DNA of 64,000 nucleotides from Arenicellales bacterium (GCA_965231905.1 CBDDOO010000001.1:696235-760234), one strand, 5' to 3'; positions 2,209 to 10,926 are shown, counted from the first letter of the stretch. The notes: generated by a model from the sequence alone, not told the origin. Translations and numbers: made by a program.

Positions 2209-2694
2209 TCAGTCTACCACGACAACCTGCGTACCGACGAACTCCCCGACCATCATTGCAGGTATGTCGTCATCGAAAATCATAGCAATGACTTCTTTAA
2301 GATTGTTGTTGAGTTCTTCAAGCGTCTCGCCCTGACTTTGGGCGCCGGGAAGTCCGGGGACGTAGCCGACATAGAGTTTTGTGTCTGGGCAGCGTTCGAC
2401 AATAGCGGTGTGGATTTGGGGATTCGAGCAGTTTGAGGTATTCGGTTCCCGTTTGCCTGAATGAGGGATTATCCAGCGAGAATATTTCCCATCAGATTGA
2501 TAAGCATGCGGCAGCTTTCCTGTACGCAATAAATTACGAAGTGGCAAACCTGGGCTGCGGATGTCATCGCGAAGAAGTCCCTTTTCTTCAAGAAGCGTGT
2601 TTGCTTCACGGGGGGCAATGTCTCGCTTTCCTGTTTCTGTCAGAAAGTTGTCCAGACATTCAATAATCGCTTCAATATCAACACTCTCTTTCAT
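2209..2694 (-). CDS. hicB: HicB-like antitoxin with an extra N-terminal domain
   Basis: The C-terminal ~70 aa (TKLYVGYVPGLPGAQSQGETLEELNNNLKEVIAMIF) match the HicB/UPF0150 fold. The N-terminal ~85 aa are unassigned. The gene ends 8 nt upstream of hicA. Confidence 0.65.
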   Translation of the reverse strand: MKESVDIEAIIECLDNFLTETGKRDIAPREANTLLEEKGLLRDDIRSPGLPLRNLLRTGKLPHAYQSDGKYSRWIIPHSGKREPNTSNCSNPQIHTAIVERCPDTKLYVGYVPGLPGAQSQGETLEELNNNLKEVIAMIFDDDIPAMMVGEFVGTQVVVVD

Positions 2695-2871
2695 TGTTTT
2701 CGTTCGTTCAGTATGCAGATAATTTCATGTACGTTATGCCATGCACACACTCACTAAAGCACATCCAATCGTATCAGCCATCCTGTGGTATGTCCATCAA
2801 AATCAGGCGTTGCAGGGTAGAACTTCCTGTGAGCGCAAGTTGTATGTGCGGAGCCTGACCTGAAAGTGAAG

Positions 2872-4419
2872 TCAGTCAAGTGGCGTGGCGTGTTGATTGG
2901 ATGGTCTTGTTCGATATTGTTGTTTTGGTTCCATGAGTAACGCCATCTGCCGCTCAGGTTCACCATGCACTCTGGCATGAATGTGATTTTCCAGTTCATT
3001 CTGTCTTCCAAGCTCTTTCGCCAATTCAAAGAATGAAATTCTGCGAAGCACATCAATAGTCACGGGTCTCTTGGAATCCATGAAAACAAGTGAACGCAAA
3101 AATTCTAAAGCTGGTCGAGAAGACAGGAGCTCATATAAAAGTTGAGCTTCTTCTTCCGACTGACACGGAATCGAATAGCAAGTGTCGTCAACCATCACGG
3201 GACGGCCTTCAATCGGAGGCACCACAACGAAAGCAAAAGATTTGTAGAAACCGGATATAGCCACCTTCCACGGTGCGAATGAATAAGATCCGATTCCGAA
3301 CACAGAGAATTGAGGGCGGTTTTTGTAGATGGAGCTTCGCCGACCATCTAACAGTTCGCTGTGGCGCACCAGATAGTCCCAGGTTGATGGGGCTTGTGTC
3401 TTGACTATGGAAGTGTCATCGCCAGTATGAAATTGAGTCACTAGAACATACTTGCGAATATCAGCCCTGCCGTTACCAAGATCAGACGACTTTAGAAGAG
3501 GGTATATAAACTCATCTTCCAGTTCGACAGACTCACCAAAGCCATTGCACAGCCGTTCTCCATCAAGACTAAATTCCATAATCTTTGCAGCATCATGCTT
3601 GATGCCGGATCGCCAGGTATAGGAAAATGACCCCCCATCCAGATTTTGGCGCCGCCGATAAGTATCTATATCGGAAACCAAATCGCCATAAATGAAACCG
3701 AAGACTCTCGAATCCGAGTCCAAATCAAGGTCGGTATAAGTCGTCGCTGTCCGATCATTTGTTATTTTTCCAGTAGTTGTAAACAGACAGGCATCCACTG
3801 CGACACCAAATGCTGCTTTCGCATCAATATGGAATAGTTTTGATGCTTCCCGCCCTCCATCCGTCTTCCAGAAGTGTCGTAGAACTTTACGCGCTGTCAT
3901 GGTCTTGCAGAGCATTGCGAGAGTCCCTTCTGTGGGCAATGCTTCAATCAGTCGAATCAGCATCCATTCGGCTATATCAAAGTTCGACTTTCCAGTGCAG
4001 GCATCAAAACCACGCAACCGTTGGAAATTTGTCTTCTTCGGGAGATTTTGGCTACCCAACTGGCCCAGACCGGAATTGGTAACCCAGGGTGGATTCCCGA
4101 TAACCAAAATCCGCGACTGCCCGCTCTTTTTCAGATTGACCCTCCAATCCTCTGTAAAGAAGTCGCAGTGGTAAAATTCAACTCCCGAACTTTCAAGAGT
4201 CAGTGAGGCTCGATCAACATACTCCTGGTTGATCTCGTAAGCTTCATAACGTGGTTCATCACCCCAATATTGCACGGAAGCCTTCAGGAACGCTCCCAAA
4301 CCCGCCGTCGGCTCAACAACGACATCCGGTTTTCCGAAAATCCCGGAAACCAAAGCGACAACCTGCGTTGCCAATTCATCAGGGGTCTGAAAATCTCCAA
4401 ATTCCTTCCTGACGCTCAT
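2872..4419 (-). CDS. N6-adenine DNA methyltransferase (gamma class, Eco57I/TaqI-like family)
   Basis: Motif I is VVEPTAGLGAF and motif IV is IGNPPW. A long C-terminal region could serve as the target-recognition domain. The start overlaps the stop of the upstream nuclease gene (ATGA at 4416-4419). Confidence 0.85.
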   Translation of the reverse strand: MSVRKEFGDFQTPDELATQVVALVSGIFGKPDVVVEPTAGLGAFLKASVQYWGDEPRYEAYEINQEYVDRASLTLESSGVEFYHCDFFTEDWRVNLKKSGQSRILVIGNPPWVTNSGLGQLGSQNLPKKTNFQRLRGFDACTGKSNFDIAEWMLIRLIEALPTEGTLAMLCKTMTARKVLRHFWKTDGGREASKLFHIDAKAAFGVAVDACLFTTTGKITNDRTATTYTDLDLDSDSRVFGFIYGDLVSDIDTYRRRQNLDGGSFSYTWRSGIKHDAAKIMEFSLDGERLCNGFGESVELEDEFIYPLLKSSDLGNGRADIRKYVLVTQFHTGDDTSIVKTQAPSTWDYLVRHSELLDGRRSSIYKNRPQFSVFGIGSYSFAPWKVAISGFYKSFAFVVVPPIEGRPVMVDDTCYSIPCQSEEEAQLLYELLSSRPALEFLRSLVFMDSKRPVTIDVLRRISFFELAKELGRQNELENHIHARVHGEPERQMALLMEPKQQYRTRPSNQHATPLD

Positions 4420-5069
4420 AGTACATCAATTCCTGTAACGCTTCCGGCTTTCTGAATGACGCGGCCATACTGAAGCCGCCACTGGAGTGCGTTTGAGATC
4501 GTCAGGTATCCGATTTGTGGTGGGTGCGTGAGCACTTTTTCCGCAAGCGCTTGTGCCTGAATATCGTCCAGAGGAAGCATCCGCTCTCTGAAAAAAGCGA
4601 GAACATCATCGGCATTCCCGTCATTTTCAATGATTTGGATGAGGCCGGACGTGGTTTGGAAATCAGCGGTTCGTACTTGGTCTACAAAAACGGTGTGCTG
4701 GATATTCAGTCGTCCGGTCCTCGTTTCATCGTCATCCGACTTCTCATAAACGAAAACAAGTAAGTTGTAGCCGAGGCCATATATTTTTTGTTGCGCTGAT
4801 TTGAAAGGGCATGAGGATTGAGGTTGTCGGACACTTGTTACTTTGATGTCAACTTCGAGGTCAGGAAAATCAATCCCTTTTGCTGTGGAGCCTTCGGTGT
4901 ATTGATATTTCGTATGAAGATATGCCTGAAATTTATGCTCCAGATAGGTGCCGACAGCCTTCCCGTCGGTTACTCCAAACAAAGCCGGTTCCAGATGGGT
5001 GGATTCTCGGAGCGAGAAATCTGTGGCTTCGGATTTAAGGAGTGGTATTGTCAGTGTGCCTGGAGGCAT
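4416..5069 (-). CDS. putative Type II restriction endonuclease (PD-(D/E)XK, MutH/Sau3AI-like motif)
   Basis: 217 aa, overlapping the methyltransferase gene by 4 nt. GKAVGTYLEHKF...KGIDFPDLEVDIKVTS resembles the MutH segment DKGWIGVLLE...QDFAALGVELKTIP. Confidence 0.6.
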   Translation of the reverse strand: MPPGTLTIPLLKSEATDFSLRESTHLEPALFGVTDGKAVGTYLEHKFQAYLHTKYQYTEGSTAKGIDFPDLEVDIKVTSVRQPQSSCPFKSAQQKIYGLGYNLLVFVYEKSDDDETRTGRLNIQHTVFVDQVRTADFQTTSGLIQIIENDGNADDVLAFFRERMLPLDDIQAQALAEKVLTHPPQIGYLTISNALQWRLQYGRVIQKAGSVTGIDVL

Positions 5070-5124
5070 GGGTTTTCTTTTTGTTATGATGCGTCAGTGC
5101 TGTTCCAGAGTGCGGATGCCGCCC

Positions 5125-5529
5125 TTAAGACTTAGGTGGAACGAATGGCCGCATAATAAAATCATCATTCAATTCCAATTCGCGAATAGACACTTTCGCG
5201 GCCTTCGCCATCGCTTTAATGAGGCTCACTATGTTGTCGGGCAATCGCTCAGTTTGGCCAAGTTCTTCGTGCATTTTTCTGAGTGCTGAAATGACTTGAG
5301 GATGTTCTGCATACGCCACGAACACTTCGTTCAACGCGATGAAAGGTTCGCCCTTACTTTCCCGGAACTGACCGGTCAAGACGTAGCGGTTACCGACAAA
5401 ACGTCGGAGAACATCACGCTTTATCTCAAATTTTGTGTGTTGGCTATTCAGGTAAAAAGAAACACAAGTCGCAAGCAAGCCAGAAAGCAAAGCAGAGATC
5501 AGTATCATCAAGGTTTGTTGAACAGACAT
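5125..5529 (-). CDS. hypothetical membrane-anchored protein (134 aa)
   Basis: The internal ATG at 5529 gives MSVQQTLMILISALLSGLLATCVSFYL (one N-terminal TM helix) and a soluble domain. The longer 196-aa ORF overlaps the lpxL-family gene, so it was trimmed. Confidence 0.5.
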   Translation of the reverse strand: MSVQQTLMILISALLSGLLATCVSFYLNSQHTKFEIKRDVLRRFVGNRYVLTGQFRESKGEPFIALNEVFVAYAEHPQVISALRKMHEELGQTERLPDNIVSLIKAMAKAAKVSIRELELNDDFIMRPFVPPKS

Positions 5530-5641
5530 TGAACTCTCGTCTATTGGATGTGATTGATGCGACCGGGAAATCGGATGCTGCATTGGTGTTATTCTGAATG
5601 AAGTATAGCATAGCTCCTGCCCCGAAACACTTGACGGAAGG

Positions 5642-6547
5642 TCAGTAAAACGATTCTTCTCCGTCAGGCCGGGTCTTGAATCGCTTGTGCGACCAGAAGT
5701 ATTGGGCAGGCGCATTGGCGATCAGGTCTTCGATGGCCCGGTTCATAGCGCTGGCGTCCTCAAGCGCATCGCCGCAAGGATAATCTTTTAGCGGAGGGTG
5801 AAAAATGACTTCTATTCCCGCCCCGAAACTTTTAATCCTGGCCATGCAGGGGATTACTTTTGCCCGGGTTGTGGCGGCAATCTTGTTCAGGGATGGAAGG
5901 GTAGCCGTGCGGATGCCATAGAAGGATGCGAATACGCCTCTTTCTTCGCCAGGGTCCTGGTCCGGCAGGTAATAAAATGGGGCGCCATTGCGGATGGATT
6001 TGATCAGGCTGCTGGAAATTCCCTTGGAACTGTACATGGCGTCACCGAAGCGGGTGCGGCGTTTCAGCATGAACCGCTCCATGAACGGGTTTTTGTGTTT
6101 CTGATAAATACTCACCATATTGAATTGGCTGAACAGGAGTCCGCCGAGGAATTCCAGGCAGCAAAAATGCGGGACCAGCAGAATAACGTTTTCGCCCTTT
6201 GCCAGATGGTCATCGAGAATCGCCCGATTTCTGAATGTGGTAATGGCGGCCAGCCGCTTTGCAGGCGCCCACCATGCCCAGGATATCAACAAAAAACCCG
6301 TCGCCATGGCATGGAAATGGGCTCTCGCAAGGTTTCTGGTATCCTTATCCGAAAGGCCGGGGAAACAAAGCCTGAGATTGATTCTGGTGATGCGGCGTCT
6401 TGACCGGTAAAGCCAAAAGGCGATCTCGCCTACAGTCACGCCAACCGCATGGACCACCCTGAACGGGGCAAGACTGAAAAGCCACAGTAACCCCAGGGAT
6501 ATTCGAATCGGCAAATTCCGGATGGATGGGAGCGCGGGGAACGCCAT
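5642..6547 (-). CDS. lpxL: lipid A biosynthesis lauroyl/myristoyl acyltransferase (LpxL/HtrB family)
   Basis: It has an N-terminal TM helix, the RINLRLCFP motif and the HX4E catalytic motif (PHFCCLE). The length (301 aa) is typical of the family. Confidence 0.8.
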   Translation of the reverse strand: MAFPALPSIRNLPIRISLGLLWLFSLAPFRVVHAVGVTVGEIAFWLYRSRRRITRINLRLCFPGLSDKDTRNLARAHFHAMATGFLLISWAWWAPAKRLAAITTFRNRAILDDHLAKGENVILLVPHFCCLEFLGGLLFSQFNMVSIYQKHKNPFMERFMLKRRTRFGDAMYSSKGISSSLIKSIRNGAPFYYLPDQDPGEERGVFASFYGIRTATLPSLNKIAATTRAKVIPCMARIKSFGAGIEVIFHPPLKDYPCGDALEDASAMNRAIEDLIANAPAQYFWSHKRFKTRPDGEESFY

Positions 6548-6640: not shown

Positions 6641-6648
6641 TAAATTAT
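6641..6648. repeat. target-site duplication, left copy (TAAATTAT)
   Basis: An identical 8-mer directly abuts both ends of the IS element (6641-6648 and 8989-8996). Confidence 0.8.
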
Positions 6649-6675
6649 GGGAATTATATACTTGACGATCCCAAA
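6649..6675. repeat. IS left terminal inverted repeat GGGAATTATATACTTGACGATCCCAAA
   Basis: The exact reverse complement is present at 8962-8988. I checked this base by base. Confidence 0.9.
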
Positions 6676-6714
6676 ATATACTGATACAATTCAGCTTCAA
6701 CATAGGGGATCGCC

Positions 6715-7623
6715 ATGAATTTAATACAGTTTACTAAAGAGTTCGCCACAGTGGAAGCCTGCATTAAGCACTTGGAGAAAGTGCGCTGGACAGATGGGGC
6801 GTATTGCCCACATTGCGGGGGTTGCGAAAAAATCTATCATTACAGCGATGGCATTCGGCATAAATGCGGAGATTGCAGGCGCGTATTCCGCATTATAACC
6901 GGCACTATCTTTTCCGACAGTCCTATCAAATTACTGCCGCAATGGTTTGCGGCGATCTGGCTGGATACTTGCCATAGCAAGGGAATATCCAGCTTGCAGT
7001 TATCCAAAGACATAGGGGTTACTCAAAAAACCGCTTGGCACATGTTACAGCGCATCCGACACGCGGCTGGAAACAATGAAACGGGGATGCTTGGGGGCGA
7101 TGTTGAAATTGATGAAACCTATATCGGTGGCAAGGAGAAGAACAAACACGCCAACAAACGCACTGCTGGTACGCAAGGCCGGAGCACCAAAACAAAAACG
7201 GTTGCCTTTGGCATGAAAGAGCGCGGTGGCAAAGCCAGGGTATTTCAGGTTAAGGGCGCCAGTGCAGCCCACATAATGCCGCCAACGCTTCGCAATGTCG
7301 CGCTTGGAACACGGATTCACGCAGATGACAACCGGGGGTATTCAGCGCTTGACAGCTATTATGCGCTGGATCGCGTCAATCACAGTCGTGGTGAGTATGT
7401 ACGCGGTGATACGCATACAAACGGCATTGAAAGCCTGTGGTCTATGGTCAAGCGGGCATATATCGGCATTCATCACTTTTGGAGCATCAAACACACGCAA
7501 CGCTACCTTGATGCTTGCGCTTTCCGCCAGAACACAAAGGACGATAAACCATTGGACAGAATTTCAACCCTGCTTGATAATGGGATGTCTGTCAGCCTTC
7601 CCTATAAGGAGTTGGTATCATGA
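6715..7623 (+). CDS. IS1595-family transposase
   Basis: The N-terminal zinc ribbon reads RWTDGAYCPHCGG...KCGDCRRVF. It is followed by an HTH-like SSLQLSKDIGVTQKTAWHMLQRIR segment and a DDE-type core (EIDETYIGGKEKNKH). Confidence 0.9.
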   Translation: MNLIQFTKEFATVEACIKHLEKVRWTDGAYCPHCGGCEKIYHYSDGIRHKCGDCRRVFRIITGTIFSDSPIKLLPQWFAAIWLDTCHSKGISSLQLSKDIGVTQKTAWHMLQRIRHAAGNNETGMLGGDVEIDETYIGGKEKNKHANKRTAGTQGRSTKTKTVAFGMKERGGKARVFQVKGASAAHIMPPTLRNVALGTRIHADDNRGYSALDSYYALDRVNHSRGEYVRGDTHTNGIESLWSMVKRAYIGIHHFWSIKHTQRYLDACAFRQNTKDDKPLDRISTLLDNGMSVSLPYKELVS

Positions 7624-8426
7624 GCCAGGTTATCCCATTTAACAAGGTTCTGGGGCACACAATACGGCCTTATCTGAACAAAGCTCCTGCCACACCATTT
7701 GTTAAGTGGGCAGGAGGGAAACGCGCCTTGATTCCGGCCATCGCAAAACACTTTCCCGATCACATCGGGACATATTGGGAACCGTTTGTTGGAGGGGGCG
7801 CGGTGTTCTTCACAATGGCAGATCGTATAGATAGGGCGATATTGTCAGACATGAACGAGGAATTGGTAATTGCTTATCAGGTGGTCAAGGGTCAGGTGGA
7901 TGACTTGATAGATTCCCTGCGTAACCATGAGCGGAACCACAAACAAGATGAGGGGTATTTTTTACGGGTTCGGGCACAGGAACCGCAATCCGCTTTGGAA
8001 ATTGCATCCCGGTTTATCTATCTCAACAAAACCTGTTTTAATGGCCTGTATCGCGTCAACAAGTCTGGTAAATTCAACGTCCCGAAGGGCAAGTATAAAA
8101 ACCCTTCCATTTGCAACGAGGATGGTCTACGGGCAGCCAGTAAGGTTTTATCGAAAGCAACAATCCGGGTTGGTGATTTCGATACGGTAGTTCAACTCGG
8201 AGCAGATGACTTTGTTTATTGCGATCCACCTTATGATGACTGTTTTACCGATTACCAGGCCGGAGGGTTTGGCACAAGTGACCAGGAGCGTCTGCGTAAA
8301 ATGATTGATGTTTGGGTTGAACAGGGCGCTATGGTAATGGCCAGCAATGCAGATACGCCCTTAATCAGGCGTATCTATCGGGGGGGGGGGGGGGGGGCAA
8401 GCCAAGTACATCTTACACGAGGTTGA
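7620..8426 (+). CDS. Dam-family (D12 class) N6-adenine DNA methyltransferase, frameshifted in a G18 tract
   Basis: Motifs FVKWAGGKR, EPFVGGGAVFF and CDPPY are present, and the ATG overlaps the transposase stop (ATGA). The as-read frame ends at 8426. The conserved Dam C-terminus (AKYILHEVEAPRHISAKAESRNDATELIITSY) continues in the +1 frame to the TAG at 8509-8511. Confidence 0.85.
   Translation: MSQVIPFNKVLGHTIRPYLNKAPATPFVKWAGGKRALIPAIAKHFPDHIGTYWEPFVGGGAVFFTMADRIDRAILSDMNEELVIAYQVVKGQVDDLIDSLRNHERNHKQDEGYFLRVRAQEPQSALEIASRFIYLNKTCFNGLYRVNKSGKFNVPKGKYKNPSICNEDGLRAASKVLSKATIRVGDFDTVVQLGADDFVYCDPPYDDCFTDYQAGGFGTSDQERLRKMIDVWVEQGAMVMASNADTPLIRRIYRGGGGGASQVHLTRG
8380..8397. repeat. homopolymeric G18 tract inside the methyltransferase gene
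   Basis: I counted the run directly: 1+10+7 G. G17 or G20 would restore the full-length frame. Confidence 0.9.
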
Positions 8427-8503
8427 AGCGCCGCGACATATTAGCGCGAAAGCTGAAAGCCGGAATGATGCCACAGAGCTTATTATTACCAGCTATAGCG
8501 ATC

Positions 8504-8959
8504 ATGGCTAGGGGTGCGCGAGCAAACCGGCGCGGTCGAACGCTTGAGAATGCAATAAACGATCTTTTGAGTGAAGACTATCAGAGGGTGACTTCTGCCA
8601 GATTCTTTGCCCTTCGGGATTTGCGCCAGCCAATTTATGCCGAACAGTGCGTAATTGGCCGTGATATTTACAGCAAAAACAGGCGGGTAGACTTTATCCT
8701 GTATCATCCGCAACGCTGGCCTGATTGTCTGGTCATACAATGCAAGTGGCAAGCATCCAGTGGAAGCATTGAGGAGAAATATCCGTTTGAAGTGCTGTCG
8801 ATCCAGTTAAACGAGTTCCCTACCATCATTGTTCTGGATGGTGGCGGGTACACTAAAGGATCTGAAATGTGGCTGAAAGGGCAGGCAGGAAAGAACAAAC
8901 TGCTACACGTCTTGAGTCTGGGAGAAATAAGCCGTTTCCACAGTCAAGGCCGAATTTAG
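8504..8959 (+). CDS. putative restriction endonuclease (small PD-(D/E)XK-like protein, 151 aa)
   Basis: The ATG at 8504 overlaps the TAG of the restored methyltransferase frame. RVDFILYHP...CLVIQCKWQASSGSIEEKYPF fits a D...(E/Q)xK nuclease core. The ORF-track start at 8423 lies within the methyltransferase C-terminal coding region. Confidence 0.5.
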   Translation: MARGARANRRGRTLENAINDLLSEDYQRVTSARFFALRDLRQPIYAEQCVIGRDIYSKNRRVDFILYHPQRWPDCLVIQCKWQASSGSIEEKYPFEVLSIQLNEFPTIIVLDGGGYTKGSEMWLKGQAGKNKLLHVLSLGEISRFHSQGRI

Positions 8960-8961
8960 AC

Positions 8962-8988
8962 TTTGGGATCGTCAAGTATATAATTCCC
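8962..8988. repeat. IS right terminal inverted repeat
   Basis: Exact reverse complement of 6649-6675. Confidence 0.9.
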
Positions 8989-8996
8989 TAAATTAT
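8989..8996. repeat. target-site duplication, right copy (TAAATTAT)
   Basis: Identical to 6641-6648. Confidence 0.8.
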
Positions 8997-9069
8997 TCAA
9001 GGGTTCATCATAATCGTTTATGAATGGTTTATGCATATATTGTTTACAGATAATGGCTGTACCCGCTAA

Positions 9070-10926
9070 ATGATCGAGTCGATTCAACTGACCTTTGAAA
9101 TGGGTGTGGTCATGGTCATTCTGCTGCTGACCATCTGTCTGTTTGCGTTTGAAGTGGTTCGGGTGGACGTGGCCGCCATATCAATCATGGTTCTGATCGG
9201 CCTTACTTCTCTTGTTCCCGGTTACGACGGGCTGGTCGGAGTGGATCAACTGTTCAGTGGTTACTCCAGTAACGCGGTGATTTCGATCATGGCGGTGATG
9301 ATTATCGGGGCCGGAATGGACCGGACCGGCATCATGGGGCAGCTCGCGTCCAAAATCCTGAAAATCGGCGGCAGTACGGAAGGCCGGGTGATCCTGATTA
9401 TTTCCAGTGTGGTCGGAGTCGTTTCCAGTTTTCTGCAGAATATCGGCGCCGCCGCGTTGTTTTTGCCGGTCATCAACCGTATTGCCAGACGGGGGAATCT
9501 GCCGATTTCACGGTTGTTGATGCCGATGGGGTTTTGCGCCATTCTGGGTGGAACCATCACCATGGTGGGGTCAAGCCCGCTGATCCTGCTCAATGACCTG
9601 ATCGCCAACTCGATAGTGGAGTCGGGCGGTGGTGGAAGCCTGTACCAGTTTGGTCTTTTTTCGGTGGCGCCTATCGGTATCGCGCTGCTTTTATGCGGAG
9701 TCTGTTATTTCGTATTCCTGGGTCGATTCGTTCTTCCGGTGATCAAGGATAAGCCCGGTGAGTCCGGTAATATGCTGAAATACTTCCGGGATGTGTATGG
9801 CATAGAAGGAGAGGTTTATGAATGTGTCGTTACCCGGGACAGTCCGCTGGCTGCCACCACGCTGTCAGAAATTGACGCCGCTGGCAGGGCAGGCTGGATC
9901 ATTGCCATGAAAACCGGAAATGAGGTCGTGGTGGCGCCAAAGGGGGACTCTGAAATCTGGGCTGACAGTGAACTTGCCGTCATGGGACGCAGGGACGCGG
10001 TTTACCGGTTTGCGGAAGAAAACCGTCTTGAAATCAAACATCAGATGGATGTGTTCGCTGAACTGTTAAGTCCCGGCAGTTCAGGGATTGCTGAAGTCGT
10101 TATTCCGCCGGACTCTTCGGTAATCGGCAAAACCACCCGGGAGATTGCTCTCAGAAGACGCTATGACGCCACCATATTAACGGTTTTCCGGGTTGATGAC
10201 GTGATCGACACGGGTATAGCCGAACTGGCTTTGCAGGCCGGGGACACTCTGGTTCTGCATATCAAGTGGGAAAATCTGGGGGCGATTTCCGACAACAATG
10301 ACTATGTCGTGGTAACCGACTTCCCGCGTGAAAATCTGCGTCCCGAAAAGCTGAAATATGCCTGCGGGTTTTTTGCGCTCACCCTGTTTCTGGTTATTTT
10401 CACCGATATCCGTTTGTCGGCAGCATTGATGACTGGCGCGGTCGGCATGATTTTATGTGGTGTGATCAATATCGAGGAAGCCTATCGGTCGATAGGCTGG
10501 CAAAGCGTGTTTTTGCTCGCCAGCCTGATACCGCTCGGCATCGCAGTGGAAAGCAGCGGCACCGCGGCCTGGGTTGCCCAGCAGGTGCTCTATTATATGG
10601 GGGACGTGCCGATATGGGCGCTGCAAACTGTGCTGGCAGTGATGGCAACCATATTTACCCTGGTGATATCCAATGTCGGGGCGACCGTACTACTGGTTCC
10701 GCTGGCCATCAATATCGCCATTGGCGTGGGCGCGAACCCGTCCGTATTCGCATTGACGGTAGCCCTCGCGACCTCAAACTCCTTTCTGATCCCCACCCAT
10801 CAGGTTAACGCGCTGATCATGGGACCCGGAGGGTATCAGGTCATGGACTTCATCAAGGCCGGGGGCATCATGACCGTGATGTTTATCGCCGTCATGATCT
10901 CGATGCTCAACTGGCTTTATATATAG
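9070..10926 (+). CDS. SLC13/DASS-family anion permease with two central TrkA-C (RCK C) domains
   Basis: 618 aa. Polytopic N- and C-terminal halves flank a soluble ~200-aa insert with TrkA-C-like repeats (IAEVVIPPDSSVIGKT..., LQAGDTLVLH). Confidence 0.75.
   Translation: MIESIQLTFEMGVVMVILLLTICLFAFEVVRVDVAAISIMVLIGLTSLVPGYDGLVGVDQLFSGYSSNAVISIMAVMIIGAGMDRTGIMGQLASKILKIGGSTEGRVILIISSVVGVVSSFLQNIGAAALFLPVINRIARRGNLPISRLLMPMGFCAILGGTITMVGSSPLILLNDLIANSIVESGGGGSLYQFGLFSVAPIGIALLLCGVCYFVFLGRFVLPVIKDKPGESGNMLKYFRDVYGIEGEVYECVVTRDSPLAATTLSEIDAAGRAGWIIAMKTGNEVVVAPKGDSEIWADSELAVMGRRDAVYRFAEENRLEIKHQMDVFAELLSPGSSGIAEVVIPPDSSVIGKTTREIALRRRYDATILTVFRVDDVIDTGIAELALQAGDTLVLHIKWENLGAISDNNDYVVVTDFPRENLRPEKLKYACGFFALTLFLVIFTDIRLSAALMTGAVGMILCGVINIEEAYRSIGWQSVFLLASLIPLGIAVESSGTAAWVAQQVLYYMGDVPIWALQTVLAVMATIFTLVISNVGATVLLVPLAINIAIGVGANPSVFALTVALATSNSFLIPTHQVNALIMGPGGYQVMDFIKAGGIMTVMFIAVMISMLNWLYI

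Follow-up and report, generated by a model that had tools for sequence, protein, structure and literature searches.

An IS1595-family transposable element carrying a putative, translationally chained restriction-modification operon with a variable G tract in the methylase gene

The window (the whole 64-kb stretch of DNA analyzed here, whose host appears to be a gammaproteobacterium) contains a 2,340-bp transposable unit in which an IS1595-family transposase gene (tnp) is followed by two cargo genes, one for a Dam/DpnM-like DNA methyltransferase (M) and one for a nuclease (R). Very probably, and taking the explanation as a whole, this unit is an autonomous passenger-carrying insertion sequence (tIS) of the IS1595 family with a captured M-R cargo, a chained operon, and a switch formed by a G tract within M. 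Judging by its domain content, the cargo is a two-gene Type II restriction-modification (R-M) operon consisting of a Dam/DpnM-like methylase followed by a small PD-(D/E)XK nuclease. The cargo is predicted to be a defense module for the host, and for the insertion sequence (IS) it is probably a stabilizing, host-beneficial passenger.

Sequence comparison within the 64-kb window places the unit at positions 6649 to 8988, where it is bounded by inverted repeats. The left repeat (IRL; 27 bp, + strand, 6649 to 6675, GGGAATTATATACTTGACGATCCCAAA) has its exact reverse complement, at 27 of 27 positions, in the right repeat (IRR; 27 bp, - strand, 8962 to 8988). These two are the only matches to the repeat in the window even when three mismatches are allowed, and a search of 100 shuffles returned zero matches. 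Both repeats contain a GATC (6667 to 6670 and 8967 to 8970), and an outward-facing TATAAT lies within IRR at 8979 to 8984. Immediately outside the repeats are identical 8-bp target-site duplications, TAAATTAT, at 6641 to 6648 and 8989 to 8996, and this 8-mer has only these two copies in the window. A preliminary description of this DNA had given exact 27-bp inverted repeats and an 8-bp duplication as the limits of a 2,340-bp unit, and on recomputation both are exact. Rfam and tRNA scans of the 64-kb window were empty.

The same description had placed M and R inside the mobile unit, moving with the transposase, and had suggested that a related genome might hold an empty site with a single TAAATTAT. 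Such a site is present in the related genome L110, whose flanks are 87% identical to those of the element over 4 kb and in which lpxL directly neighbors a permease gene. The L110 spacer reads ...CATTTTACA TAAATTAT TCAAGGGTT..., with a single TAAATTAT exactly at the position of the window's element, and tnp, M, and R are absent together. Because this spacer is uninterrupted and holds one copy of the 8-mer, the trio must have arrived in a single event, in which the 2,340-bp unit with both M and R entered an AT-rich 8-mer in the lpxL-permease spacer and duplicated it.

In many other bacteria, too, the trio moves as one transposing unit, and it can reach at least five copies per genome. The same three genes with the same repeat core were found in at least nine lineages with differing AT-rich 8-bp duplications, and individual copies with their own duplication include L002 (TATCATTA), L003 (TAAAATTT), L014 (AAAAATAT), L100 (TTTGTGAT), L101 (ACTATTTT), and L109 (TTAAATTG). 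Copies ending elsewhere, which the preliminary description had named as contrary to its view, are not what was found: the copies share their ends, each with its own 8-bp duplication. Most trio lineages keep the repeat core TTATATACTTGACGATCC, and all of them keep CGATCC, which contains the GATC. A closed 2.43-Mb genome contains five full copies that differ by 0 to 6 mismatches over 2,320 bp, and flanks have been swapped between copies within one genome. Flank swapping accounts for the lack of matching duplications at L015, L099, and L102, an explanation that does not extend to L019 and L098, which also lack them. At the right end, an L106-type element is cut by an IS630-like insertion. The labels of metagenome-assembled genomes carrying the element include Alphaproteobacteria and Paracoccaceae.

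Transposase and cargo are also linked across relatives. Among the fetched loci, all eight transposase relatives with at least 68% identity carry M (plus R), and 78 relatives at 46% identity or less do not. Trios also occur at 62 to 65% transposase identity (L106 to L108 and L109), and no cargo-less transposase relative at 62% identity or more was found among the loci examined, a sample of the 7,315 homologs detected at E < 1e-40. Sixteen contigs coincide, judged by their length, between the best 120 transposase matches and the best 120 nuclease matches. M-R pairs also occur outside any IS, as ordinary chromosomal operons: pairs lacking both transposase and repeats were found at 62 to 68% nuclease identity (L004 to L013 and L105), and an ISNwi1-like IS may have captured such a preexisting operon. 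The existence of these IS-free operons, and nothing further, speaks for a chance juxtaposition in which a small IS came to lie beside a resident R-M operon, with the right repeat being solo or coincidental. Set against it are the L110 site without all three genes, the 27/27 repeat that has zero matches in shuffles, and at least seven independent whole-trio insertions with their own duplications; with the empty site and the duplication-flanked copies, chance juxtaposition is refuted, and we give it next to no probability.

Searches of other sequence collections returned little. The DNA of the whole element matched plasmid records only through two 60- to 80-bp methylase fragments, and the nuclease protein had one distant match among plasmids and no match among phages. 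The repeat core was not found in viral contigs, nor was a degenerate repeat pattern found in JGI metagenome contigs, and a transposase-based scan of the JGI metagenome contigs identified only two close relatives. As a separate observation, a transposase-less cassette at L001 contains a 212-amino-acid (aa) open reading frame (ORF) without a Pfam match.

The transposase (302 aa, + strand, 6715 to 7623) was assigned to the IS1595 family by Pfam and NCBIfam, with matches to DDE_Tnp_IS1595 (PF12762, 9e-41), Zn_ribbon_IS1595 (PF12760, 4e-9), and transpos_IS1595 (NF033547, 172 bits against a cutoff of 75). Its N-terminal Zn ribbon contains C31, C34, C51, and C54, and its DDE domain contains D133, D204/205, E239, and K246. 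The closest annotated transposases in plasmid records have no more than 43% identity and bear the generic name "IS1595 family transposase" without a specific IS name. The ends of the element look like those of the ISNwi1 type, since GGGAATTAT fits what we take to be the consensus of that subgroup, ggnnatTAT. The total length of 2.3 kb likewise falls within the range of 1.75 to 4.75 kb that we assume for ISNwi1+ elements, and the assignment to the ISNwi1 subgroup is presumptive in this sense.

At 6662 to 6690 (+ strand), the sequence TTGACG-17-TACAAT, preceded at its -10 by a TG extension, matches the sigma-70-type consensus and is a putative promoter. Its -35 hexamer falls within IRL, overlapping the GATC there, and a comparable layout, in which the repeat supplies the -35 and the -10 follows some 17 nt further inside, recurs in L003, L014, L015, and L106.

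The product of M (+ strand, 7620 to 8511 in the restored frame) is a Dam/DpnM-like N6-adenine DNA methyltransferase with matches to MethyltransfD12 (3e-59) and TIGR00571 dam (1e-79) and with the motifs FVGGGAV and DPPY. Its best solved relative is DpnM (2dpm, 1e-54), followed by Escherichia coli Dam. Identical counterparts of Dam residues K9, N120, L122, R124, N126, N132, and P134, which we take to read GATC in the Dam structure, are present in the methylase alignment. Given its similarity to DpnM and Dam, the methylase is most likely GATC specific. The window contains 370 GATC sites and shows no avoidance; the element has 12 sites compared to 13 expected, and the host has a mild deficit at 0.82. 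As there is no avoidance in the element and only this mild deficit in the host, the counts are uninformative on specificity.

As assembled, M contains a run of 18 G (+ strand, 8380 to 8397) that sets the frame, and the ORF starting at 7620 stops at 8424 to 8426 after 268 aa. With 17 or 20 G, the frame runs to a TAG at 8509 to 8511 and encodes 296 aa. The restored methylase frame of the preliminary description, with its stop at this TAG, was accurate for these tract lengths. Its "complete" R-M pair needs more care: both genes are present, but the methylase frame is broken by the assembled run, and the pair is complete only at a tract length other than 18 G, which shifts the frame.

The product of R (151 aa, + strand, 8504 to 8959) is a PD-(D/E)XK nuclease and putative Type II restriction endonuclease that matches PDDEXK_11 (6e-26) and, weakly, DpnII. 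Among its 371 homologs, one of which is annotated as DpnII family, D63, Q79-C-K81, and E96 are invariant or nearly so. An AF2 model of the nuclease has a pLDDT of 88.6, and its weak Foldseek matches are mostly PD-(D/E)XK or restriction nucleases; because these matches have E values of 0.016 or higher, we claim no specific structural relative. A PDB sequence search with the nuclease gave no credible match.

The three genes are chained by overlaps of starts and stops, as had been claimed from the start. The transposase TGA overlaps the methylase ATG as ATGA (7620 to 7623), with an AGGAG 9 nt upstream of this ATG within the C-terminal codons of the transposase. The nuclease ATG lies in the restored methylase frame's last codons, 5 nt before its stop (ATGGCTAG), giving an 8-nt overlap. 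The ATGA junction and the ATGnnTAG or TAATG junction are kept in every lineage, and in every lineage there is no Shine-Dalgarno sequence upstream of the nuclease start. We propose that the three genes would be read as one operon from a promoter with its -35 in the left repeat, and that translation would be handed along, with M starting at the transposase stop from a Shine-Dalgarno sequence embedded in transposase codons. Since R starts 5 nt before the M stop without its own ribosome-binding site, R output would depend on ribosomes finishing M. With M ahead of R in this way, an R-M system could be established safely in a new host.

Within this operon, the G tract would be a hypermutable repeat that switches M between a full-length form (17 or 20 G here) and a truncated form (18 G). 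When M is truncated, translation would end about 78 nt short of the R start, so R should fall too, and slippage in the tract would turn down the toxic half of the cargo along with the protective half. A difficulty for this switch is that, given the unavoided GATC sites of the window, a GATC nuclease that is active while methylation is missing would kill the cell, and survival in the OFF state would call for a loss of coupling, a further Dam, or slippage during transcription. Because the third frame of the window is open from the tract into R, we also weighed a programmed M'-R fusion, and we rejected it as a conserved feature since other lineages have stops in that frame.

The tract behaves like a contingency switch in its sequence and distribution, with homopolymer sequencing error being possible for individual copies. 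No other homopolymer in the window exceeds 8, and the Gly-rich loop encoded by the 18-G run is inserted relative to DpnM and Dam, which lack it. A tract of 9 to 18 G occurs at the same codon in six lineages that form one subclade, including the window, and that have saturated synonymous sites; the tract is absent from the IS-free M-R relatives and from deeper IS-borne relatives. Elsewhere in the genes of the G-tract lineages, GGG makes up only 20% of Gly codons. In one closed genome sequenced at 59x, copies that are at least 99.7% identical have tracts of 9, 14, and 16 G and, twice, G6AG7, and tract length is the only indel among the five copies in one genome. Between L016 and L017 the tract differs (9 versus 14 G) while the encoded nucleases are identical. 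Eight of the 12 scored copies are out of frame, which equals the random expectation and gives no sign of selection for either state.

A simpler account would be a plain tIS with a constitutive R-M system, in which the tract is a Gly-rich loop, the frameshifts are homopolymer errors of long-read assembly, and nothing switches. Most out-of-frame copies do come from long-read metagenome assemblies, and such assemblies do hold homopolymer indels, including 1-nt frameshifts in the short G4-5 runs of L010 and L012. The short-read-derived copies at L017 and L019 are both in frame, as is L015 on a 59x contig, and an error of one base would explain L003 (9 versus 8), L014 (10 versus 9), L016 (9 versus 8), and the window (18 versus 17). 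Individual ON/OFF calls, including that for the window's 18 G, may therefore be one base off. However, the spread of tract lengths among the near-identical copies of the closed genome exceeds an off-by-one error, and neither the difference between L016 and L017 nor the window's 18 G is of that kind. An uninterrupted G run has moreover been kept in six lineages with saturated synonymous sites despite the low share of GGG among their Gly codons, and such long runs are intrinsically unstable in replication. We consider assembly error an unlikely explanation for the tract as a whole.

It is less likely still that the cargo is decaying, with the methylase being inactivated, the nuclease inert or tolerated through a host Dam, and the IS carrying dead weight. 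The out-of-frame state of M in 8 of 12 copies would fit decay, as would the fossil M-R genes at L103 and L104, where M is fragmented, the transposase is missing, and the right repeat is degenerate. A change of TTGACG to TTAACG at the -35 in four of the five element copies of the multicopy genome points the same way. However, with dS saturated, dN is 0.08 to 0.31 for tnp, M, and R, and in all lineages M and R have a dN well under their dS; this pattern of codon divergence indicates that purifying selection keeps all three genes. The nuclease is the most conserved of the three proteins (74 to 87%), has a length of 150 to 152 aa, is intact in every full copy, and retains its catalytic residues almost without exception, and the sole lesion in M is the tract itself, which slippage can reverse.

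Another reading gives the methylase a role mainly in the service of the transposon, marking the GATC in both repeats and in the -35/spacer of the promoter and tying transposase expression and end usage to replication and to the state of the tract, with the nuclease as an addiction partner. GATC occurs in both repeats of every M-R lineage, including those at 62 to 65% transposase identity; relatives that carry other cargo have TTGACTCACC, TTGACACACC, TTTACACCGG, or TTTATAACC at that place in their repeats. The GATC overlaps the -35 hexamer, three lineages have a GATC in the stretch that separates the Shine-Dalgarno sequence from the start of the transposase, and IS10, IS50, and IS903 are known to be controlled by Dam (PMC9296519). 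However, the M-R lineages are one clade, so the shared GATC may reflect common descent; the GATC may also be part of a transposase-binding site, and lineages without a G tract keep M constitutively. We regard this reading as possible, if on balance doubtful, and it is compatible with the captured, chained, and switchable cargo that we favor. Combining the two, one could tentatively picture a self-regulating epigenetic transposon whose own methylase marks GATC in its repeats and promoter and whose tract slippage switches everything at once. If this were true, slippage would switch the methylation of the ends (affecting transposase expression and end usage), the methylation of the host genome, and the nuclease, the last through lost translational coupling, and a single ON copy would be enough to protect a multicopy genome from all of its nucleases.

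R-M systems are mobile and are usually seen on plasmids, phages, or islands. In the element described here, a Type II R-M operon would instead be built into, and translationally chained within, a minimal autonomous transposon that is spread over several bacterial groups. Passenger-carrying IS are a known kind, but this widespread and sometimes multicopy family with its hypervariable G run appears, to our knowledge, to be undescribed. Neither "transposase" nor "insertion sequence" occurs as a word in a recent comprehensive review of R-M systems (PMC12707154). The element offers a simple, testable route for spreading defense genes and methylation patterns, one that multiplies within a single genome, and its copies are repeated homology that rearranges genomes. 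The clade-specific hypervariable tract, together with the dependence of the nuclease on M translation, suggests reversible silencing of a toxic cargo and would mean that phase-variable methylation is not confined to host-adapted pathogens. In practice, elements of this kind will mislead binning and strain typing that rely on methylation.

Among known systems, the passenger-carrying IS come closest in architecture. The term tIS was defined on the IS1595 family by Siguier et al. in 2009, as cited in PMC3129680 and PMC11891212, and the passenger classes listed in PMC11891212 are regulators, methyltransferases, and resistance genes. The element shares with the ISNwi1/"ISNwi1+" tIS (Siguier, Gagnevin & Chandler 2009) a DDE transposase with an N-terminal Zn ribbon, catalytic residues that fit the D, D, E(+7)K pattern, an 8-bp duplication, and short terminal repeats that enclose passengers downstream of the transposase; unlike those tIS, it carries a full R-M pair, which is not among the classes in that list. 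MTnSag1 of Streptococcus agalactiae and tISCpe8 of Clostridium perfringens are likewise IS1595-type transposase units with a passenger gene, 25-bp repeats, and 8-bp duplications (PMC5704250), but their cargo is a lincosamide resistance gene plus mobilization functions, with no R-M system, translational chaining, or repeat tract. A transposon-like R-M unit was described in Neisseria gonorrhoeae NCCP11945 by Furuta, Abe & Kobayashi 2010 (PMC2853133, Fig. 11b), combining R-M genes and a transposase-like gene with perfect 26-bp repeats, an 8-bp duplication, and an empty site in a related genome. In contrast to the element described here, that unit is a single copy with a truncated Type IIG RM gene and an S subunit as cargo, its transposase-like gene was considered probably inactive, and the description includes no family, operon coupling, or repeat tract. 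The impression in the preliminary description that this arrangement had not been described before holds for the trio family, which appears to be new, and gives way where the tIS and the N. gonorrhoeae unit precede it.

The cargo and its putative switch also have known counterparts. DpnII/MboI-type GATC systems resemble the cargo in that the methylase is closest to DpnM and the nuclease weakly matches the DpnII family. DpnII systems have two methylases, whereas the element carries its R-M genes inside an IS with a single methylase, and its nuclease is about half the size of DpnII, matching positions 141 to 248 of a 278-position profile. For IS10, IS50, and IS903, the likeness is a GATC in the transposon end and transposase promoter region; those elements rely on the host Dam, whereas this one carries its own Dam-like enzyme, whose regulatory role is hypothetical. 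Phase-variable R-M systems (phasevarions) are similar in that a long homopolymer within a methylase ORF sets the frame and varies in length (PMC12707154, PMC4209511). Known examples are chromosomal loci of host-adapted pathogens, mostly of Type I or III and some of Type II, with homopolymer-controlled methylases in Helicobacter, Neisseria, Haemophilus, and Campylobacter. The tract described here differs in lying within a Type II methylase on a multicopy transposable element of environmental bacteria and in preceding a translationally dependent nuclease, with its switching being inferred from sequence.

The 2,340-bp element is an IS1595-family transporter insertion sequence (IS) that carries a Type II restriction-modification (R-M) operon as cargo. 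Its left terminal inverted repeat, GGGAATTATATACTTGACGATCCCAAA (6649 to 6675, forward strand), has an exact reverse complement at 8962 to 8988 (reverse strand), and an 8-bp duplication, TAAATTAT, lies outside both repeats (6641 to 6648 and 8989 to 8996) and has no further copy in the 64-kb window. A search of the window for the repeat, allowing three mismatches, returned just these two matches, and 100 dinucleotide-preserving shuffles returned 0. The repeats, duplication, and ORFs were re-found at the positions of the preliminary description, and the recent insertion that it suggested is borne out to the extent that the element inserted recently enough for perfect ends and a perfect duplication to persist.

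Three genes are present on the forward strand. An IS1595-family transposase of 302 amino acids (aa; 6715 to 7623) that combines a Zn ribbon with a DDE domain is followed by an adenine methyltransferase of the Dam family (D12 class), whose start at 7620 falls within an ATGA that also holds the transposase stop, and by a 151-aa PD-(D/E)XK nuclease (8504 to 8959), which matches PDDEXK_11 at 6e-26 and DpnII weakly. Within the methylase gene is a run of 18 G (8380 to 8397), the sole homopolymer of more than 8 nt anywhere in the 64 kb, which puts 37 downstream codons out of frame; as assembled, the ORF stops at 8424 to 8426. With 17 or 20 G, the methylase would have 296 to 297 aa and a TAG at 8509 to 8511, overlapping the nuclease ATG by 8 nt. 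Both overlaps described earlier were confirmed, the second at these two tract lengths; of the proposed complete R-M pair, both genes are present but the methylase is broken in the assembly by the 18-G run. A tract of 16 or 19 G would let the methylase frame continue without a stop into the nuclease frame (8380 to 8959; ORF 8423 to 8959 is open upstream) and yield a methylase-nuclease fusion protein; because the third frame is closed in the other lineages, this is probably incidental rather than a conserved feature.

The three-gene unit is the mobile unit. In a related genome (L110; 2.1-Mb contig), flanks 87% identical to those of the window over 4 kb surround the empty site that had been proposed as a check: an lpxL-type acyltransferase gene directly adjoins the gene of a 618-aa permease, and their spacer aligns with both window flanks across the junction, with a single TAAATTAT exactly at the insertion point. 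An exact-match repeat scan of one genome per species recovered three further elements, and context look-ups around nuclease and transposase homologues recovered many more. At six other loci, the transposase-methylase-nuclease order and the repeat core are conserved and each has its own perfect AT-rich 8-bp duplication (TATCATTA in L002, TAAAATTT in L003, AAAAATAT in L014, TTTGTGAT in L100, ACTATTTT in L101, and TTAAATTG in L109). Together with the empty site, these copies bear out the proposal that methylase and nuclease lie inside the mobile unit. Genome ERZ26167216 (circular 2.43-Mb contig) has one partial and five full copies, the latter separated by 0 to 6 substitutions over 2,320 bp. Three of its copies (L015, L099, and L102; ctg495665) have exchanged flanking 8-mers, with ATTATTTT left of L015 and right of L102, and AACGCTTT right of L015 and left of L099, which argues for recombination between element copies, with rearrangements. 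A Dehalococcoidia MAG (L001, 1293 to 2097) contains an 805-bp cassette without a transposase, bounded by these terminal repeats with 0 and 2 mismatches and flanked by an 8-bp duplication of its own, TAAAACAA; its only ORF (212 aa) has no Pfam match, and it looks like a mobile insertion cassette mobilized in trans.

The G tract occurs at one codon (..LeuTyr-Arg-Gly(n).., TATC then G(n)) in the window, L002/L003, L014, L015 and its sister copies, L016/L017, and L019, with lengths of 9 to 18 G, and the residues that it encodes are an insertion relative to DpnM and Dam. It is absent from IS-free relatives (LYAGEPF, LYQGKAY, and LYKGAQF there) and from the deeper IS-borne L106 (LYANYEI) and L109 (LYRDFTR) and therefore arose within the IS-borne clade. 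The run is uninterrupted even though synonymous sites are saturated and, outside the tract, GGG accounts for only 20% of the Gly codons of these genes. In the five-copy genome, length varies at the tract and at no other site: three copies have 9, 14, and 16 G and two have G6AG7, with only the 9-G copy, L015, in frame; L016 and L017 have identical nucleases with 9 and 14 G. On this comparative evidence, the tract probably behaves as a hypermutable contingency repeat that would switch a mobile R-M system. Of 12 scored tracts, 4 are in frame, equal to random expectation. Most copies come from long-read metagenome assemblies with demonstrable 1-nt homopolymer indels, which makes single-base in-frame or out-of-frame calls, that of the window included, unreliable, unlike multi-base tract-length differences, which are reliable; both short-read-derived copies (2/2) are in frame. 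If the out-of-frame state in the window is real, its 370 GATC sites demand less nuclease translation, another Dam, or slippage-derived in-frame transcripts. The premature methylase stop lies 78 nt upstream of the nuclease ATG.

A promoter-like site (TTGACG-17-TACAAT with a TG extension; 6662 to 6690) has its -35 hexamer inside the left repeat, and a comparable arrangement recurs in other lineages. At left-repeat position 16, the in-frame L015 keeps TTGACG, and four out-of-frame copies of the same genome (L098 to L101) have TTAACG. An AGGAG embedded in conserved transposase C-terminal codons precedes the methylase start. No purine-rich ribosome-binding site precedes the nuclease start in any lineage compared, and that start is always at or just 5' of the methylase stop (ATGnnTAG or TAATG); the genes would therefore form one operon in which nuclease translation depends on ribosomes completing the methylase, and this gene order would favor methylation ahead of restriction. 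Because no terminator-like site was found on the forward strand between the nuclease gene and the permease gene at 9070, and the right repeat contains an outward-facing TATAAT (8979 to 8984), permease expression may change via read-through or a hybrid promoter (8955 to 9070). On its other side, the insertion is 101 bp upstream of the lpxL-type gene, which is divergently transcribed.

The best solved relative of the methylase is DpnM (1e-54), the GATC methylase of the DpnII system, followed by Escherichia coli Dam (4e-32). In the DpnM/Dam alignment, it has identical counterparts of Dam K9, N120, L122, R124, N126, N132, and P134, which we take to be the GATC-contacting residues of Dam-DNA structures. 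D63, Q79-C-K81, and E96 are invariant in the nuclease family; the confident α/β model (pLDDT, 88.6) has weak Foldseek neighbors that are mostly PD-(D/E)XK or restriction nucleases (BstEII, Can2, MspJI, Ecl18kI, and PfoI), and NCBI labels one homologue as DpnII family. Given the methylase kinship, these nuclease features, and the DpnII annotation, our best guess is that the cargo would be a GATC-specific Type II system. In the window, GATC is mildly low (370 observed versus 450 expected), and for CTAG, with 5 sites against a trinucleotide expectation of 22, depletion is strong.

Both repeats of every lineage carrying the R-M pair contain CGATCC, mostly as CTTGACGATCC; relatives with other cargo have otherwise similar termini (GGGAAtTATATAC..) with TTGACTCACC, TTGACACACC, TTTACACCGG, or TTTATAACC at that place. 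In the left repeat, GATC overlaps the -35 hexamer. By analogy with host Dam, which modulates IS10, IS50, and IS903, the element's own methylase would modulate its ends and promoter, an idea that we consider unlikely; shared descent explains the motif equally well, as the R-M carriers form one clade.

Among 97 fetched loci, transposase relatives of at least 68% identity are followed by this methylase in 8 of 8 cases, and, on contigs that extend far enough, by the nuclease, versus 0 of 78 at 46% identity or less. In a large protein search, transposase relatives form a continuum from 80% down to 55% identity, and the two looked up within that range (L106 to L108 and L109; 62 to 65%) both have the three-gene order; judged by length, 16 of the contigs behind the best 120 transposase matches coincide with contigs behind the best 120 nuclease matches. 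In comparisons between lineages, all three genes combine saturated synonymous sites with a dN of 0.08 to 0.31, which argues that the trio is old and maintained by selection; the nuclease is its most conserved protein. Nuclease homologues at 62 to 68% identity (L004 to L013 and L105) belong to plain methylase-nuclease pairs with the same overlapping stop and start and no transposase or repeats. A Rhodobacteraceae pair (L103/L104, 3189 to 4478; nuclease 71% identical, methylase fragmented) is without a transposase and has a 19/27 right-repeat remnant after the nuclease stop, exactly at the expected place, and looks like a fossil of the element. The simplest history is that an IS captured a preexisting methylase-nuclease operon, followed by spread and occasional decay. 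The deeper-branching trio of L106 to L108 (4456 to 4868), without a G tract, has two additional small ORFs of 77 and 56 aa downstream of the nuclease gene, and an IS630-like insertion cuts the right side of the element in all three contigs.

Just beyond lpxL is a second Type II R-M pair (within 2209 to 5715, reverse strand): a 217-aa restriction endonuclease (4416 to 5069; NCBIfam NF052465, 1e-103) whose gene overlaps by 4 nt that of a 515-aa protein (2872 to 4419) that has a methylase motif, GNPPW, and no Pfam or NCBIfam match, with a HicB-like gene at 2209 to 2694. L110 has an AEP-TOTE/DEAD helicase gene in place of this block (about 3146 to 5636), which marks it as a variable defense islet. 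Scans of the 64-kb window for tRNA genes and Rfam families detected none.

The ends, GGGAATTAT, and the 2.3-kb size presumably fit the ISNwi1/"ISNwi1+" subgroup. Many relatives at about 35 to 45% transposase identity are 2.4 to 3.2 kb long with other cargo. Four human-gut metagenome contigs (L022, L025, L027, and L032; transposase 43% identical) share the terminal 12 to 13 nt (GGGAATTATATA) in elements of 2.4 to 2.8 kb that carry different unannotated cargo and have no GATC in their repeats; L027 has a perfect duplication, CTGTATTA. A second IS1595-type element, of ~2.0 kb, is present in the five-copy genome in at least four copies (L098, 1 to 1029; L099, 4930 to 6687; L102, 1711 to 3468 and 6345 to 8102), with a 231-aa transposase (38% identical to that of the window), a 288-aa N6/N4 DNA methylase, and ends beginning GGGAACTATATACTT; no matching duplications were found around these copies. 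Given the relatives with other cargo and this second methylase-carrying element, cargo, especially DNA methylases, is usual in this branch.

In the literature searched, we found no description of this widespread transposase-Dam-nuclease family, its translational chaining, its multicopy state, or its clade-specific hypervariable G tract. The arrangement has more precedent than the preliminary description allowed. The IS-plus-cargo principle is established: PMC3129680, PMC7986276, and PMC11891212 credit Siguier et al. (2009) with defining passenger-carrying transporter ISs on the IS1595 family. Furuta et al. (2010) described a Neisseria R-M unit that contains a transposase-like gene, lies between 26-bp repeats with an 8-bp duplication, and has a corresponding empty site; they cite Siguier et al. 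among reports of IS-associated R-M or solitary methylase genes (PMC2853133). The IS1595-type MTnSag1 and tISCpe8 have 25-bp repeats and 8-bp duplications (PMC5704250) and, like the window element, combine cargo with an 8-bp duplication, although theirs is resistance rather than R-M. Overall, the original observation is confirmed and its interpretation supported; against this known principle, what is new and testable is the picture across the family, together with the probable contingency switch in an R-M system borne by a transposon.
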